Origin: a virus
Length of the DNA: 29,228 nt
Virus record (IMG/VR): IMGVR_UViG_3300010338_000991
Direction: 5' to 3' (one strand)
Positions 7,061 through 29,228 of this stretch are shown one piece after another (position 1 is the stretch's first letter; the number at the start of each line of letters is the position of its first letter). The notes under the pieces were generated by a model. It worked only from the letters and a program-made list of their open reading frames with translations. It did no database searches and was not told the DNA's origin. Position numbers and translations under genes: made by a program.

Positions 7061-7288
7061 TCATGATTTTCTCCTTTGCATTGCCATGTCTTTATCCGCC
7101 AAAAGCGCGTCCGTAATCTCCTGGAAGTGCTTACCAATCCCATTGCGCTCGTATCCATTCGTTCCAGCTAGCCATGCGTAGAATTGCCGATCACTGATGT
7201 TATGTATCCGGCAAAATCCGGTGATCGAATATCCGCGATCCCGTATCGCCTTCTTTATTTCCATTCCTTGATCTTTTGTTATTCTCAT
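7061..7288 (-). CDS. Small putative HTH DNA-binding protein (75 aa)
   Basis: Start ATG overlaps the upstream stop (TAATG) with GAGG upstream; helix-turn-helix-like segment YSITGFCRIHNISDRQFYAWL. Confidence 0.4.
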   Translation of the reverse strand: MRITKDQGMEIKKAIRDRGYSITGFCRIHNISDRQFYAWLAGTNGYERNGIGKHFQEITDALLADKDMAMQRRKS

Positions 7289-7566
7289 TATCTTGCCTCG
7301 CAATTTTCGCACACGTAATAATTGCCATGATCAGCCACCTGCTTCCATGTATATAGTCTGCCGCATTTGCCACAGCGAGCTATGCTATGCGCTTTGATTT
7401 TTTCGTATTCCTTGCCTAAGTTTTTTAGCGATCTGCGCAAGGCAATTTCTGTCTCTGCGTGTTTCAAACTCGCTCTTATCCTGTGCTTATCAATTAGCTT
7501 TGCTCGGCGGGCAAAATAACCCGCCAGAGCAATTGCGATAATGGTTATGCATATCATTATGATCAT
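7288..7566 (-). CDS. Membrane-anchored zinc-ribbon protein (about 92 aa; ORF track extends to 7608)
   Basis: AAGGAG 8 nt upstream of ATG 7566, which overlaps the RecT stop (ATGA); N-terminal TM helix; C-terminal CGKCG..CENC. Confidence 0.4.
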   Translation of the reverse strand: MIIMICITIIAIALAGYFARRAKLIDKHRIRASLKHAETEIALRRSLKNLGKEYEKIKAHSIARCGKCGRLYTWKQVADHGNYYVCENCEAR

Positions 7567-8881: not shown

Positions 8882-9663
8882 CTTTTCCTCCCTGTTCTGG
8901 CTTTAATGTGGTATGCAATATCGAATTCATTGCAGAAACCAATAACTGTCTCAACTGCGTTATTATAGAAGCTCTGATAATCAGGATAGGTGGATACCAA
9001 CTTGTTATAATGCAACCTGCCAAAGATAATCCTATCAGTGAAGGAAACTTTATCAAGTAATGACACCAAGTCTTGCTTTACTATATTGGGCGTTGGATAT
9101 GGTTCTATACTCACCCACGTTCTACAACCCAGATCATGCAAATTCTTTATGCTTGCCAGGCGGGTAGGGTAATCTGCGGAAAATGGTTCATATTGCTTTC
9201 TGAAGCCTTCATCGAAAGATACCAGTGAAATGCCCCATTCATGCTTTCTATCAAACCTCGATAGTTCCGAAGGCAGTAATCCTTTGGTTAGCGCTGTGCA
9301 CTTGATGCCATAATGATCCAGTAGCTTGATGATCTCGAGGCTCATTTTCGTTACTTCAGGGTATCCACTCATGAATGGGTCTGTGGTAAAGCAAAGATGC
9401 ACGGACTTAATGCTTTTCTGCTTCCTTGGGATTTCTTTCTTCAGCAGATCAAGAGCGTTTTCAACCAGCCTTGGTTTCAGCCAATCGTCGTAGTCTTTTA
9501 TCCTGCCAAATCTGCGAGCCATCATGAAGGCGTAACAGGGATAAGTGCAACCATGAGAACAACCTAACACATGGTTTATTGTGAAGTCTCCGTATTCTAC
9601 ACCTGTTTTATAGAGAAGCTGTTTTCTTAAATTAGTCTTGCTGGTTGTTTCCTTGTCGCTCAT
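8878..9663 (-). CDS. Hypothetical protein with N-terminal Cys cluster (GCSHGCTYPCYA), possibly DUF5131 (phage Gp37/Gp68)-like
   Basis: N-terminus EYGDFTINHVLGCSHGCTYPCYA resembles, from memory, the conserved start of DUF5131 proteins; not a canonical radical-SAM CxxxCxxC. Confidence 0.4.
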   Translation of the reverse strand: MSDKETTSKTNLRKQLLYKTGVEYGDFTINHVLGCSHGCTYPCYAFMMARRFGRIKDYDDWLKPRLVENALDLLKKEIPRKQKSIKSVHLCFTTDPFMSGYPEVTKMSLEIIKLLDHYGIKCTALTKGLLPSELSRFDRKHEWGISLVSFDEGFRKQYEPFSADYPTRLASIKNLHDLGCRTWVSIEPYPTPNIVKQDLVSLLDKVSFTDRIIFGRLHYNKLVSTYPDYQSFYNNAVETVIGFCNEFDIAYHIKARTGRKR

Positions 9664-9869
9664 AGCTCTATCTCCAGTTGTTCAGGATTATTGAATAACT
9701 GGTTTTCATCATTAGAGTCAGGTATCCACAGTAGCTGTTTGCTATAAACACAGCCGTTGTCGCGGTGTATCCAAGAGTATCCGTAGATCGGGCTGTAGTC
9801 GCAGGGCGGCATTAAGGTGTGGCATACGGGACAAAAACGTATAGGTGGGCGTTCTCGTTTGTGTTCCAT
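9660..9869 (-). CDS. Small Cys-rich protein (69 aa)
   Basis: AAAGGAG 6 nt upstream of the ATG; CPVC..PPC motif. Confidence 0.4.
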   Translation of the reverse strand: MEHKRERPPIRFCPVCHTLMPPCDYSPIYGYSWIHRDNGCVYSKQLLWIPDSNDENQLFNNPEQLEIEL

Positions 9870-9875
9870 TGTTTT

Positions 9876-9906
9876 CTCCTTTATTTTATTGTGTTTATCA
9901 TTTCTG
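9876..9906. repeat. Copy 1 of a duplicated 30-bp element (minus-strand sense ATGATAAACACAATAAAATAAAGGAG)
   Basis: Near-identical to 11919-11955; both copies end in an SD sequence directly upstream of a minus-strand start codon. Confidence 0.6.
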
Positions 9907-10005
9907 TCAAGTCCTGAAATGGCGGACTGTTTTTTAGCTTTTGTTGTTTAGCCTAAGCCCCTACATATAATCCCGCTACCGAGCAGGGTTGGCAAAAAGT
10001 GAAAC

Positions 10006-10878
10006 TTACGCAGCATCATATAGTTGGGCAGGTATCTGGTAGTTAATGCCGGCATGCAGGCGACAGTGATTGTAATCGTGGATGGACAATTTGATCAACT
10101 CCCTGGCCAGGCGTTTGCTCTTCAGGACCTTATGGATCAGGTATTCATGCTTCAGGGTATTGAAGAAGCGCTCTATTTTGGCATTGTCATAGCAGTGGTT
10201 TTTCCCCGTGAAGCTTATAGTCAGGCCATGGGACTGGAGTTTTTTCAGATATCGATAGGAACAATACTAGCAGCCATGGTCTGAATGGTGGATGGCTCCT
10301 TTCAGTTCCGGCGTGCTTTTCAAAGCCTTATTAAGGCAATCCAGAGCCCCGTCAGTGCGCAGATTGTTGCTGATGTTGAAGCTGAGTATCTTACGGGAAT
10401 ACATGTCCATCAGAACCGACAGGTAGAGAATGCCTTCGGTGGTGTGGATATAGGTGATGTCGGCGCAGATCGCCTGGTTGGGACGGGTTATAGGTAGTCC
10501 CTTGATCAGGTTTTCAAAGCTGGAGTCATAAATACCGGGGATAGACGTGCGAACCTTCCTGTAACGCCGGGACAGGACCAAGCCGCGATCGCGCAGGATC
10601 CTGTGGAGTTTGTCACGGCCGATCCCAATCCCCAGGTTGGACAACTCATGCCACAGCTTGCGGATGCCGTAAGCAGGATGCGCCGCCCTGATCTTAAGTA
10701 CCTCGTCCACAATCATCTGCTCGTATTCCGCAACCTTCTGGGAGGATGCCAGGGTCTCATAATACCAGGACTTGCTCTTGTTGAGATTCTTGCAGATGGC
10801 GCTCATGGACGCTTTGACAGAAGCCGCTCCAGCGTTCTTCTTTGCTCGGGGGACAGCCTGGAAAGTGAAGTTTTTTTT
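10006..10878 (-). pseudogene. IS3 transposase OrfB (DDE catalytic domain) interrupted by one in-frame TAG at 10267-10269
   Basis: Translation reads ...AIHHSDHGC, then TAG, then a further 86 in-frame codons (YCSYRYLKK...GKNHCYDNAKIERFFNTLK...) up to TAA at 10006. Confidence 0.7.
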
Positions 10879-11218
10879 CAGCCTCGCTGATGTTCTCGTT
10901 GACCACCTCCACATAGCTCTGAAGGCAAATATTGTGCAGGGTGACAGAGGCCAGGGCGGACTCCAACTCCTTGATCCGGTCTTTTTGCTCTTGCAGTATC
11001 GATTTCTCGTCTTTCATCTCAATCCTCACGTATCTTCTTATTACTTGATCCTTTCCGTATTTGCGGAGCCACTTGTAGATCGTGGTTCTGCCATTGATTT
11101 CATAAAGACGGGTTGCCTCTGCTATTGTCAACCTTCCTTTATCAATCTCCTGAACAACTTTCAACTTGAACGCCTCACTGTAGCGAAGCGTTACCTGGGC
11201 GATGGACTGTTTGGCCAT
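10757..11218 (-). CDS. IS3 transposase OrfA (HTH and leucine-zipper part)
   Basis: AAGGAG upstream of ATG 11218; N-terminal HTH-like LTIAEATRLYEINGRTTIYKWLRKY; coiled-coil segment; overlaps OrfB in the -1 frame. Confidence 0.8.
   Translation of the reverse strand: MAKQSIAQVTLRYSEAFKLKVVQEIDKGRLTIAEATRLYEINGRTTIYKWLRKYGKDQVIRRYVRIEMKDEKSILQEQKDRIKELESALASVTLHNICLQSYVEVVNENISEAEKKLHFPGCPPSKEERWSGFCQSVHERHLQESQQEQVLVL
10871..10877 (-). other. Programmed -1 ribosomal frameshift site A_AAA_AAA for OrfAB fusion transposase
   Basis: Minus-strand codons GAA AAA AAA in the OrfA frame; OrfB frame is open in -1 from this point. Confidence 0.5.
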
Positions 11219-11258
11219 TTTTTACTCCTTATTTTAGTCCACCTTTTTCAGGACACCT

Positions 11259-11286
11259 CAGCCAGGCGGGAGATCCCGCCTGGCTG
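11259..11286. repeat. Perfect 12-bp-stem hairpin (CAGCCAGGCGGG agat CCCGCCTGGCTG) abutting the IS end
   Basis: Inverted repeat read directly; 10 nt downstream of the stop of gene 11297-11539; no U-tract on either strand. Confidence 0.5.
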
Positions 11287-11296
11287 GGTAAATGTT

Positions 11297-11539
11297 TCAG
11301 CATCCGCAGGGAGTTCCCCCGCGGTATATTCTACCGCAGGAGTACTCCTCTTCCTCCCACTGACACCCGCAATGGGTGCAGTGCACCACCCTTGTTCCGA
11401 GATAGTAGGTCCCGTTGGGACCCCTATCTTCATCGCAAACGAGGGGGTTCCGATACTCTGCGAGGAGGTATTTCTCCTCGATGAGCCTTGCGGCGAGAAG
11501 ATCGCCGCAAAGATTTGTTAGGGTCATTTGCTTTTTCAT
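11297..11539 (-). CDS. Small Cys-rich protein (80 aa)
   Basis: AAGGAG upstream of the ATG; CTHCGC..C..CGC cysteine pattern. Confidence 0.4.
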   Translation of the reverse strand: MKKQMTLTNLCGDLLAARLIEEKYLLAEYRNPLVCDEDRGPNGTYYLGTRVVHCTHCGCQWEEEEYSCGRIYRGGTPCGC

Positions 11540-11739
11540 GGTATCTCCTTTTTTAGGTGAGCCCTATATTTCCCTTTCGGGTGGCTCACTCTATATGTGT
11601 ACAAGATAATCAATGCCGGTATTCTGTCAAGAAGTTTTTTCACTTTTTTTGTCTTTTTTTTTAGCCCCATGCCGCAAGCCATTGTAGCGATAAGACTTAC
11701 GGCATAAAACTTTTTTGCTCACGCTATTTGTTCCAGTTT

Positions 11740-11910
11740 TTAACGATAATCTCGTCTGAGATCCCGGCCGCATGGATCACCTTTTTTACTGCCTCCGGTG
11801 GCAACGTCTCGAAAAGCGTAACCACCGCAACGCATGTGTCGGCAAGCTGGTGTTAATGGAACAGGCTCTTCCAGCATACGGAAAAGATTGTCATCGTGTT
11901 CTTCAAACAT
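11740..11910 (-). CDS. Small ORF (56 aa), not in the supplied track
   Basis: ATG at 11910 preceded by AAAGGAG at 8-nt spacing; translation MFEEHDDNLFRMLEEPVPLTPACRHMRCGGYAFRDVATGGSKKGDPCGRDLRRDYR. Confidence 0.3.
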   Translation of the reverse strand: MFEEHDDNLFRMLEEPVPLTPACRHMRCGGYAFRDVATGGSKKGDPCGRDLRRDYR

Positions 11911-11918
11911 TTGTCATT

Positions 11919-11955
11919 CTCCTTTATTTTGTTATTGTGTTTATCATTTTTTCTG
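11919..11955. repeat. Copy 2 of the duplicated element; overlaps the last codons of gene 11924-12307 and the SD of the small ORF
   Basis: Minus-strand sense CAGAAAAAATGATAAACACAATAACAAAATAAAGGAG; compare 9876-9906. Confidence 0.6.
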
Positions 11956-12307
11956 CCAGGTGCTTGCGATCTCGCATTGCGAAACCGTAGCGCAAAACGG
12001 CAATCAACACATCCATCTCGTCGGGAATTCCGCGAGCCTTGACAGCATCAATGTGGTCAAGCAGATTCGGATAGCGAATTTCGCCCTTGCGCACCGGTGG
12101 CTCAGGATAGCACTCGTGACAATAGACGCTACGAGTGCATGCTTGCCAAGCGAACGGATCAATCGAATCGTTCATAATCGCGTCATAGTGACCGTGCGCG
12201 CCTATGTAATCGTAATCAGGCACGCGGATCATGCCGGAACCGGAACACCAAGCGCAAGCCGGATTGTGAACGATCGTGCCGGTAGGCTCTTTCGCTTTGA
12301 AACTCAT
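11924..12307 (-). CDS. Hypothetical protein (127 aa)
   Basis: ORF whose start overlaps the upstream stop (ATGA); no motif recognised. Confidence 0.45.
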   Translation of the reverse strand: MSFKAKEPTGTIVHNPACAWCSGSGMIRVPDYDYIGAHGHYDAIMNDSIDPFAWQACTRSVYCHECYPEPPVRKGEIRYPNLLDHIDAVKARGIPDEMDVLIAVLRYGFAMRDRKHLAEKMINTITK

Positions 12308-13970: not shown

Positions 13971-14096
13971 AAGCAAATGCTAAGCAAATGCTAAGCAAAT
14001 GCTAAGCAAAATCAAGCAAACCGAAGCAGATAAGATAAGATAAGATAAGATAAGAGTAGATGAGATTAGATGAGATTAGAGGAGATTAGAATAGAC
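13971..14096. repeat. Iteron-like tandem repeat array: AAGCA-containing units at 11/11/11/10/10-bp spacing, GATAA x5, and four 10-bp units (TAGATGAGAT x2, TAGAGGAGAT, TAGAATAGAC)
   Basis: Read directly from sequence; located in the divergent intergenic region upstream of the replication module. Confidence 0.7.
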
Positions 14097-28811: not shown

Positions 28812-29228
28812 ACTTGTTTACATTGATCACAATGATTACGAGCACACTTTTTATAATGTGCTTAATTTTAGCATTGATCCTATACAAGCTAATACAGACA
28901 ACATTTTTACTTCATCCGGCAGAAAGCTAAGCATAACAATCCCCTATGATGCTTCCGCCATAAACGCATTCCACAATAACGATCAGCCGAATGAAATATA
29001 TCCGGAATATTTAGCAGGGCACTTTAGATTCTTTAAGGATAACGAAGTAATTTTTATTGGCATGGCAAAAGTTACATTTATCGACATTGATGAGCAGAAT
29101 GCAGAGATACAATTTAGGATTTCAGACGCTCTTGATCTTTGGATCGATTTAGCCAAATCAACAAACTTTGATGTAAAGGCTGCGGAACAAAAAGTGATAC
29201 ATTTGCGACCATCAACCGGAGATTATAC
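28801..29228 (+). CDS. Tail protein, 5' part (ATG at 28801 overlapping the tape-measure stop; runs off the window end and continues at 1-1184; full product about 494 aa)
   Basis: Open frame from ATG 28801 with no stop to the window end; the last 127 nt equal bases 1-127 and the frame matches ORF 93-1184; position immediately downstream of the tape measure gene. Confidence 0.5.
   Translation, partial: MSYKLVYIDHNDYEHTFYNVLNFSIDPIQANTDNIFTSSGRKLSITIPYDASAINAFHNNDQPNEIYPEYLAGHFRFFKDNEVIFIGMAKVTFIDIDEQNAEIQFRISDALDLWIDLAKSTNFDVKAAEQKVIHLRPSTGDY
29102..29228. repeat. Terminal overlap copy 2: identical to 1-127
   Basis: Same as above; unique genome length is therefore about 29101 bp. Confidence 0.85.

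Follow-up and report, generated by a model that had tools for sequence, protein, structure and literature searches.

A conserved gene end at the edge of a phage cargo slot and its second, probably imported, copy beside an IS3-family element

A sequence of about 30 nt occurs at two gene junctions of a viral DNA of 29,228 nt (IMG/VR record IMGVR_UViG_3300010338_000991), the whole of which is referred to here as the window, and one of the two copies abuts an insertion sequence (IS). The original prediction, made from the letters alone, regarded the repeat as a conserved junction or regulatory cassette, possibly a module-boundary recombination sequence or a binding site, and proposed that the insertion point of the IS was precisely the edge of copy 1. 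The locus thus raises the question of whether the repeat is an element in its own right and how one copy came to lie at the end of an IS. The analysis showed that the element comprises the 3' end of the coding sequence, the stop codon and the SD sequence of a conserved early gene of 127 aa and is not a free-standing motif. Copy 2 is the end of this gene and the edge of a variable slot, and copy 1 is probably an imported junction fragment that was cut by an IS-associated rearrangement. The features of the region are listed in Table 1.

Table 1. Features of the repeat region in window coordinates
Feature	Coordinates	Strand	Remarks
69-aa gene behind copy 1	9660..9869	-	ATG 9869
Copy 1 (J')	9874..9903	-	Probable detached relic of the junction; reads M-I-N-T-I-K-stop; AAGGAG serves the 69-aa gene
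Hybrid promoter-like site	9883..9910	-	-35 TTGACA 9910-9905, 16-nt spacer, -10 TAAAAT 9888-9883; candidate by 11/12 consensus match only
IS3-family IS, 1,356 bp	9905..11260	-	TG…CA ends, imperfect inverted repeats, OrfA (HTH), OrfB (rve)
Hairpin CCAGGCGGGA-TCT-CCCGCCTGG	11261..11290	-	Directly left of the IS; -32.8 kcal/mol, z -6.5
Conserved non-coding block	11524..11741	-	Stem-loop, invariant TTGACA-N16-TATCTT, small hairpin, SD
56-aa ORF behind copy 2	11740..11910	-	Deletion-fusion; L127 matches both ends
Copy 2 (J)	11917..11949	-	Last 8 codons of the 127-aa gene (…K-M-I-N-T-I-T-K), stop and SD; left anchor of the hypervariable slot
127-aa gene	11924..12307	-	Function unknown; 3' end is the element

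Both predicted sequences were found on the minus strand at 9876-9906 and 11919-11955, and each did end in AAGGAG ahead of a start codon, with the hexamer at 9881-9876 and a 6-nt spacer before the ATG at 9869 in copy 1, and at 11924-11919 with an 8-nt spacer before the ATG at 11910 in copy 2. The limits of copy 1 were correct only in part, since the 'CA' at 9906-9905 belongs to the terminus of the IS, while the rest of the shared stretch is genuine. The first of the two indels originally described was consequently an artefact of the IS terminus. With this correction the shared stretch is AAATGATAAACACAAT[AAC]AAAATAAAGGAGAA, in which 30 of 33 nt are common to 9874-9903 and 11917-11949 and a single 3-nt indel remains. 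The gapped local score of the pair was 25, compared with 11.2 ± 1.2 (maximum 17) in 200 dinucleotide shuffles, so that the similarity is genuine and far above chance. The two copies lie about 2 kb from each other in the same orientation and their longest exact run is 19 nt, a length at which exchange between the two would be inefficient. Only two sites in the window matched a profile of the family junctions significantly (E values of 6e-13 and 2.5e-6; the next best was 9.3). The search for further copies in the genome and in related phages, which had been suggested as a check, gave one copy per locus in about 40 family loci and two only in this window.

Copy 2 encodes the MINTITK end of the 127-aa gene, as originally noted, and the TAA stop codon (11926-11924) overlaps the SD by one base. 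Every homologue of this gene that was found ended in the same sequence, and the C-terminus was shared even where the N-terminal halves were unrelated. The family is represented by about 40 related metagenomic phage contigs, most of them presumably from anaerobic digesters, and the host is probably a Cloacimonadota bacterium. A blastn search of GenBank phages with the region gave no match, and a 16-mer scan of viral contigs was discarded as too unspecific, having returned more than 100 mostly chance matches.

The prediction of a module boundary was borne out for copy 2. Among 20 distinct relatives, the mean pairwise identity was 0.96-0.97 over the last 60 nt of the gene (11977-11918) and dropped downstream of the SD to 0.59, then to 0.43 and finally to 0.21, all within about 100 nt. 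The proposed alignment of related genomes thus placed the end of the similarity directly after the SD of copy 2. The junction hardly varies among about 40 relatives, and the DNA behind it falls into 11 unrelated sequence types; together with the DNA behind copy 1 of the window, the 39 junction instances have 12 unrelated downstream clusters. Copy 2 marks, on the left, the sharp limit of a cargo slot that is hypervariable in this phage family. Junction haplotypes and downstream genes were combined reticulately, with both GAA/AAC and AAA/AAT preceding MTNFKEHDG and the reverse also seen, and many family members shared identical runs of at least 29 nt at the junction.

Copy 1 differs from all of the family junctions by a 3-nt deletion and is the only detached second copy within one genome among the loci examined. 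Together with the first 65-95 nt or so of the 69-aa gene, it forms a patch of separate ancestry. From about position 9776 downstream, the 69-aa gene was 97-99% identical to contig L298, in which the DNA upstream was unrelated. The spacer following the SD was AAAACA in copy 1, as in L268, versus AATGACAA in copy 2. The exact copy 1 type of sequence had no match in metagenome contigs, in collections that apparently lack the window's own source contigs, and a search of viral contigs gave no relatives of the 69-aa gene. Similarly, no donor with the order 127-aa gene, copy 1-type junction and 69-aa gene was found, and the 51 loci with a radical-SAM-like neighbour were unrelated phages, uninformative on the junction. 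The idea that two in-frame indels marked a diverged coding allele was dropped, since only one 3-nt indel was left and none of the 127-aa gene homologues found ended in …EMINTIK.

Detached fragments of the same gene end occur elsewhere, with different 5' limits. In L268, the fragment extends 24 nt further in the 5' direction and forms an in-frame fusion with another gene, with a GATCG microhomology at the joint. A 68-nt patch lies in an unrelated AT-rich phage, L276, where an ORF runs through the core in another frame.

The membership of the IS in the IS3 family is not in doubt. It has an OrfA with a helix-turn-helix (HTH), an OrfB with a DDE transposase domain (rve), an A-run for -1 frameshifting and imperfect terminal inverted repeats ending in 5'-TG…CA-3'; the reading frames are intact in the genomic copies L180 and L299. 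Its limits were set by L180, a contig consisting of the IS only, and by L181. The window copy is decayed, with a CAG to TAG nonsense mutation in OrfB (10269-10267) and a 1-nt deletion (A) in the frameshift site (10878-10871). Recoding of the in-frame TAG was ruled out, as the genomic copies have CAG and TAG is an ordinary stop in long ORFs. No target-site duplication was present at the flanks of the window IS (…TGGC and GAAA…), unlike the related copies L300, L305 and L307, which have duplications of 3-4 bp (TCT, GACG and CGG). The flanks also failed to match in 7 of 10 related IS contigs, most likely as a result of chimeric metagenome assembly, so that an absent duplication is weaker evidence in metagenomic data than it would be in isolate genomes. 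The position given in the original prediction, exactly at the edge of copy 1, was right, but simple insertion, which in this IS family leaves a duplication of 3-5 bp, fails for this copy and, lacking the duplication, 'inserted' is probably not the whole story.

The DNA on the two sides of the IS has different ancestries. On the left, the hairpin falls within a 33-nt block shared with the relative L121, which then continues with different DNA; on the right, the flank differs from L298. The CCTGGC left of the IS had been considered as a repeat continuing across the IS and was rejected, being part of the block common to L121. The right end of the IS had no match in viral contigs, and no IS-free version of this genome was found, so that the state before the IS had to be inferred. 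The arrangement is no assembly artefact, as identical junctions were present in at least 12 independent contigs of about 29.1-29.2 kb (Logan, JGI and ENA) from different pipelines and samples.

These results suggest a course of events. Nearly identical across members of the family, the junction could anchor homologous pairing between co-infecting relatives at one end of the slot, and a gene landing behind it would inherit a ready translation-initiation region because the stop codon overlaps the SD. The window encodes an annealase (7563-8534 matches RecT-like PHROGs, E 1e-21), and the conserved anchor of about 60 nt is longer than the published minimal pairing segments of RecT-like annealases, about 23-27 bp (PMC3945230). 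A sharp boundary at the gene start would equally be left by selection on random illegitimate recombinants; consequently, homologous exchange through the anchor, to which only the reticulation of junction haplotypes against downstream genes points, and that indirectly, keeps the status of an inference. Copy 1 would be a displaced junction fragment of another family member, brought in with the 5' end of the 69-aa gene. The upstream remainder of the 127-aa gene may have been lost in an IS-linked rearrangement, in which either two IS copies at different sites recombined or DNA next to the IS was deleted. A loss of this kind would explain why the end of the similarity coincides exactly with that of the IS. 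The best reading of copy 1 is that of a relic of a second 127-aa gene end, carried in with cargo, truncated by the IS rearrangement and still the ribosome binding site of the 69-aa gene. This may now be its only role, apart from possibly providing the -10 half of a hybrid promoter borne by the IS.

Several other explanations of the repeat were considered. The core of about 30 nt could be a discrete portable cassette that travels with genes and works at both positions, for instance as a module for translation initiation or coupling or as the binding site of a regulator. Each copy has a strong SD directly before a start codon, the A-rich core is predicted to be unstructured, like good initiation regions, and TAAAGGAG is confined to these two sites, although AAGGAG itself is the general SD. 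Moreover, the patch in L276 has almost the same 5' limit as copy 1, which a discrete unit of about 30 nt would also explain. However, that phage reads the core in another frame, the 5' limits of the detached copies vary, as in L268, and the limit of copy 1 was set by the IS. The relatives have one copy per genome, the window has no weaker copies beyond its two, and the core encodes, in frame, part of a conserved protein C-terminus; it has no dyad symmetry and is unpaired in the minimum-free-energy fold in both contexts. The cassette is thus unlikely, and the regulatory or binding-site part of the original prediction was not upheld. The lack of structure also led to the rejection of an integron attC-like or other structured recombination site. 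That copy 1 arose locally from copy 2, by unequal or illegitimate exchange between sister genomes rather than by import, would be in keeping with the direct orientation at a distance of about 2 kb and with 30 nt identical to both copy 2 and the family consensus except for one 3-nt deletion. The different spacers after the SD speak against it, as does the joining of copy 1 to a 5' segment of the 69-aa gene of separate ancestry, although such differences are few and hence weak evidence. It had been stated beforehand that the proposal would fall if the similarity were restricted to these two sites and due to a local tandem duplication of coding sequence; by this measure it largely falls, as within the window the restriction was indeed observed and copy 1 is explained as a displaced piece of the 3' coding end, but import from a related genome is probably the source and local duplication has a rather low probability.

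The IS itself could have landed by ordinary insertion beside a pre-existing junction copy (joint …CCCGCCTGGC-GAAATGATAAAC…), with nothing truncated and the edges coinciding by chance. The hexamer CCTGGC left of the IS also precedes the element in the 127-aa gene and could represent a microhomology joint older than the IS. Yet this motif belongs to the hairpin block shared with L121, the 3-4-bp duplication seen at related copies is missing and the edges would have to coincide to the base, all of which makes such a landing very unlikely. Least probable is that the two copies resemble each other by chance or that the arrangement is an assembly chimera spanning a repeated IS. Mixed combinations of flanks are common for related IS in metagenome contigs, but none of the 200 shuffles reached the observed score and the same structure recurred in all of the independent assemblies mentioned above. 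The window IS also differs at 39 positions from L180, its nearest complete genomic copy, and at 32 from the end-truncated L299, so that the assembly path through it is largely unambiguous.

The reading of copy 1 as an imported and truncated gene end can be extended to a more ambitious one, in which the junction is a 'landing pad' whose nucleotides, beyond the protein C-terminus itself, are kept nearly invariant for RecT-mediated capture and swapping of cargo, the hybrid promoter of IS and relic has been co-opted, and the 3-nt deletion was selected. The -35 hexamer of this candidate promoter is the last 6 nt of the IS and the -10 hexamer lies inside copy 1, where the deletion changed CAAAAT to TAAAAT and shortened the spacer from 19 to 16 nt; no promoter-like site was found within copy 2 on the gene strand. 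The predicted start, at about 9878-9874, is inside or just after the SD and would remove most of it. This extended reading as a whole is unlikely. If true, the promoter would allow transcription to resume past the strong hairpin, into the 69-aa, radical-SAM and RecT genes.

In lambdoid phages and mycobacteriophages, according to the model of Hendrix and Hatfull, mosaicism reportedly results from illegitimate recombination, with random joints filtered by selection. The 5-6-nt microhomology joint in L268, the deletion-fusion that gave the 56-aa ORF and other fusions located just past the first few codons of the gene usually found downstream agree with this model, whereas the many independent joints within about 30 nt of one conserved sequence do not. 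The joints are more clustered than random joining alone predicts, and a mixed model fits. Mosaic junctions of temperate phages have been ascribed to relaxed homologous recombination by Rad52-like or RecT annealases, which leaves 'homologous-recombination traces' (PMC3945230). The present junction resembles these in that a short conserved stretch flanks swapped DNA, the boundary lies at a gene border and a RecT-like annealase is encoded; it differs in the detached second copy within one genome, an extra scar, and here the left anchor alone is seen in detail, in an uncultivated family with a deduced host. The IS is comparable to IS3-family elements and IS-derived hybrid promoters (PMC9330008) in its A-run between OrfA and OrfB, its TG…CA ends, an outward TTGACA and, judged from sequence, a putative -10-like hexamer in the flank at 16 nt, within the 16-18 nt expected of a hybrid promoter, but it is decayed and without a target duplication.

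The PeSLs of T4-type phages, units of promoter and stem-loop present many times per genome (PMC2839356, PMC4122927), are likewise short conserved sequences that border hyperplastic regions, where relatives differ by insertions, deletions and replacements. In contrast, the present element has neither promoter nor stem-loop terminator, consists of coding sequence and SD and occurs once per genome. A PeSL contains a strong sigma-70-like promoter; the promoter-like site at copy 1 is complete only with the -35 hexamer supplied by the IS. The conserved non-coding block, with its stem-loop and TTGACA-N16-TATCTT, is closer to a PeSL, yet it is single-copy.

The repeat reflects phage mosaicism of the ordinary sort; it reveals no new regulatory element and no new kind of element. 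Its value lies in providing a clean and well-sampled case, in about 40 contigs, of accessory-gene exchange in phages of an uncultivated phylum. One conserved gene end stays in place at the border of a slot, in which the family carries at least 11 different cargoes, and the detached junction fragment, the fusion ORFs and the decayed IS devoid of a target duplication are scars that record rearrangements. In practice, the gene end can be used as an anchor to mine cargo genes in this phage family. A note of caution is that short repeats at gene junctions can be relics of coding sequence.

The conserved non-coding block separates two variable slots in the family. A comparison with Rfam gave no match at or above the gathering score, and the one sub-threshold hit, HTH-XRE at 11480-11536, was on the opposite strand with 22.7 versus 49.8 bits. 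The 56-aa ORF was found to begin like the usual downstream gene (MFEEHD…) and to end like the gene that lies ahead of this block in relatives.

Both minus-strand sequences of the original prediction were present where it had placed them and, as it had proposed, each ended in AAGGAG shortly before a start codon, with the ATG 6 nt beyond in copy 1 and 8 nt beyond (the ATG of the 56-aa ORF) in copy 2. The closing codons of gene 11924-12307 (...A-E-K-M-I-N-T-I-T-K) also lay in copy 2, confirming the MINTITK reading. Although both sites were real, the limits required correction: the 'CA' assigned to the start of copy 1 was the terminus of the insertion sequence (IS), since the IS spans 9905-11260, and was not part of the repeat. 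The corrected common stretch was AAATGATAAACACAAT[AAC]AAAATAAAGGAGAA, with one 3-nt indel. The element consisted of coding sequence, a stop codon and a Shine-Dalgarno (SD) sequence, the last two overlapping by one base, and was predicted to be unstructured.

The copies were far more similar than chance would allow, with a gapped local score of 25 compared with 11.2 ± 1.2 (maximum 17) for 200 dinucleotide-preserving shuffles. The 16-nt core occurred exactly twice in the window, and the extended TAAAGGAG only at the two copy sites, AAGGAG alone being the general SD. A search of the window with the family-junction profile gave two significant sites (E 6e-13 and 2.5e-6) and no other site better than E 9.

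Coordinates and order of the features discussed
Feature	Position	Strand	Description
Copy 2	11917-11949	minus	end codons of the 127-aa gene, stop TAA (11926-11924), AAGGAG (11924-11919)
Copy 1	9874-9903	minus	AAGGAG (9881-9876), 6 nt upstream of the ATG (9869) of the 69-aa ORF
IS	9905-11260	minus	reads TGAGGTGTCC...GGACTTGACA; limits from L180 and L181
56-aa ORF	11740-11910	minus	deletion-fusion
Conserved non-coding block	11524-11741	minus	~200 nt; 85-89% conserved in about 15 relatives
80-aa Cys-rich ORF	11297-11539	minus	flanked by the promoter-like conserved block and the hairpin
Promoter-like hybrid site	9883-9910	minus	TTGACA (last 6 nt of the IS), 16 nt, TAAAAT (inside copy 1)
Gene block, start		minus	replisome organiser, then DnaC-like loader
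Gene block, next		minus	127-aa protein (no family match), 56-aa ORF, conserved non-coding block
Gene block, next		minus	80-aa ORF, very stable hairpin, IS
Gene block, end		minus	69-aa ORF, radical-SAM protein, Zn-ribbon protein, RecT-like annealase

Copy 2 marks a module boundary, as had been suggested. About 40 related contigs were found by protein- and pattern-based searches. All were near-identical over the final ~60 nt of the 127-aa gene and the SD, and the DNA that followed differed. Among 20 distinct sequences, the equivalent of 11977-11918 had a mean pairwise identity of 0.96-0.97, making it the best-conserved part of the gene, and beyond the SD identity dropped, in consecutive 20-nt bins, to 0.59, 0.43, 0.37, 0.30 and 0.21. 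The DNA behind the junction (39 instances) fell into 12 unrelated clusters, 11 from family junctions and one from copy 1 of the window. Some joints lay a few codons inside the usual downstream gene (MFEEHD...); MIKFEEH was joined to a PAPS-reductase-like protein in three relatives (L041, L047, L279), and in L283 MIK was joined to an internal portion of this downstream gene. The first ~63 nt of the 56-aa ORF matched the 5' end of that gene, and its last ~60 nt matched the 3' end of a gene in relative L127, upstream of the conserved non-coding block. One downstream gene occurred with several junction haplotypes and one haplotype with several downstream genes, a reticulate pattern. Homologues of the 127-aa protein kept the C-terminus ...RDRKHLAE(K/E)MINTITK, including those with unrelated N-terminal halves (P0006, P0008), so this end of the gene has repeatedly taken part in recombination on both sides.

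Within the non-coding block were a stem-loop (ATGCCGTAAG...CTTACGGCAT), an invariant TTGACA-N16-TATCTT, a small CCC-GAAA-GGG hairpin and an SD-ATG; the gene that came next varied among relatives. The block is a second anchor, dividing the variable region into two slots. The 80-aa ORF, for which neither the relatives nor the family libraries yielded a homologue, is a moron-like cargo gene.

The notion of a recurring regulatory cassette was not borne out. Every family locus had one junction and only this genome had two; copy 1, with no 127-aa gene in front of it, is a relic of coding sequence whose present role is to provide the 69-aa gene with a ribosome-binding site. Two further detached fragments had unlike 5' limits. 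In a chimeric 47-aa ORF at 410-553 of contig L268, the N-terminal part of an HTH protein, homologous to the product of the 83-aa gene at 7061-7312 of the window, ran in frame into the final 13 codons of the 127-aa gene, the two meeting at a GATCG microhomology; the contig has low coverage, and either a tandem duplication or a large deletion may have created this joint. L276 is an AT-rich phage of no relation; on its reverse strand, at about 1755-1886, a 43-aa ORF enclosed a 68-nt patch, read in another frame, that was identical to the element plus the first ~10 codons of the usual downstream gene.

The only homologue of the 69-aa gene was in contig L298. Downstream of about 9776, to the end of the radical-SAM gene, L298 and the window were 97-99% identical; they diverged strongly over the first ~65-95 nt of the 69-aa gene, and the upstream DNA was unrelated. 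Copy 1 and the 5' end of the 69-aa gene are therefore a small patch of separate ancestry. This patch might have been duplicated locally or imported from another family member. The spacer after the SD of copy 1 was AAAACA, as in L268, and not the AATGACAA of copy 2, which weakly favours import over local duplication.

The original prediction also held that the IS had inserted exactly at the edge of copy 1. The position did adjoin, but the arrangement was not that of a simple insertion, as the flanks (...CCCGCCTGGC|IS|GAAATGATAAAC...) showed no target duplication. The IS limits were set by L180, an IS-only contig from a Cloacimonadota MAG that was 97% identical, and L181, a further MAG copy whose flank differed. 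This IS is a genuine member of the IS3 family; the window copy departs only from simple insertion. Full-length relatives, 85% identical overall with identical termini, had 3-4-bp target duplications where the flanks belong together: TCT (L300), GACG (L305) and CGG (L307). The left flank of the window IS was a 33-nt hairpin block (-32.8 kcal/mol, z -6.5) common to relative L121, where other DNA follows, and the right flank was the copy 1 relic; thus, the two flanks differ in history. An assembly chimera was ruled out by identical junctions in at least 12 contigs of ~29.1-29.2 kb (Logan, JGI, ENA; different samples). Flanks did not match in 7 of 10 related-IS contigs, which are probably assembly chimeras, so a missing duplication carries less weight in metagenomic data than it would in isolate genomes. 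The window copy was also decayed. It differed from L180 at 39 positions and had an in-frame CAG→TAG change at 10269-10267 (HSDHGC-Q-Y of OrfB; CAG in the genomic L180 and L181), and the A-run frameshift site at 10871-10878 (minus strand) was short of one A, so that OrfA enters the wrong frame.

Two side observations concern these flanks. In L300-L309, contigs of the related IS (85% identical), one left flank was joined to four different right flanks, evidence that short-read assemblies are often chimeric across this related IS. Downstream of the hairpin in L121 (3030-3450) was a highly repetitive pentapeptide-repeat-like protein with tandem GCTGACCTGCGATGG-type units, which is cargo in the second variable slot.

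In the simplest account, the IS would once have disrupted a 127-aa gene at its 3' end, and the present joint would then have been formed either by recombination of that copy with another IS copy situated after the hairpin or, alternatively, by an IS-adjacent deletion. Either route would delete the rest of the 127-aa gene, so that the similarity stops at the IS by construction. At the family junctions, the near-invariant ~60-nt stretch may act as a homology anchor; it is longer than the minimal pairing segment of Redβ-type annealases, ~23-27 bp (PMC3945230), and the phage encodes a RecT. Cargo arriving behind the junction would gain a working initiation region, which could account for the clustering of surviving joints at the start codon or immediately beyond it. 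Illegitimate joints, formed at random and then sifted by selection, probably also contribute, given L268 and the fusion ORFs.

Among known systems, the element came closest to the ordinary mosaic junctions of temperate phages, also called homologous-recombination traces (PMC3945230). The nearest named junction cassettes are the PeSLs (promoter plus stem-loop) of T4-type phages (PMC2839356). The element lacked a promoter, a stem-loop and multi-copy dispersal, and should not be filed as a PeSL because three of the four defining features fail; the non-coding block resembles PeSLs more closely but differs in being single-copy. An Rfam search gave no match at threshold. The region is a well-documented case of known processes at work in a phage family that is itself new.

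IS3-family right ends carry an outward -35 that can make hybrid promoters with flanking -10 boxes (PMC9330008). TTGACA-16-TAAAAT at the IS/copy 1 joint matched the sigma-70 consensus at 11 of 12 positions, by sequence match alone. The 3-nt deletion, found only in copy 1 among the 39 junctions, changed CAAAAT to TAAAAT and the spacing from 19 to 16 nt, and the invariant hexamers of the non-coding block suggest that such motifs plausibly matter in this host. A transcript from the predicted start, at about 9878-9874, would lack most of the SD, which counts against a promoter. The putative promoter is an unlikely reading, a side observation that could matter.

An exact 127-nt terminal direct repeat (1-127 and 29102-29228) indicated that the genome, of about 29.1 kb, had been assembled as a circle. 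Also encoded nearby were a RusA-like resolvase, a DNA methylase and a peptidase_M15. The closest IS copies were in Cloacimonadota MAGs, and we infer that the phage host belongs to the Cloacimonadota; most phage relatives presumably come from anaerobic-digester-type metagenomes. At 13971-14010, in an AT-rich region between divergent gene blocks, three overlapping copies of an 18-nt unit with 11-nt spacing (AAGCAAATGCT repeats) could be an operator or an origin-like iteron array.
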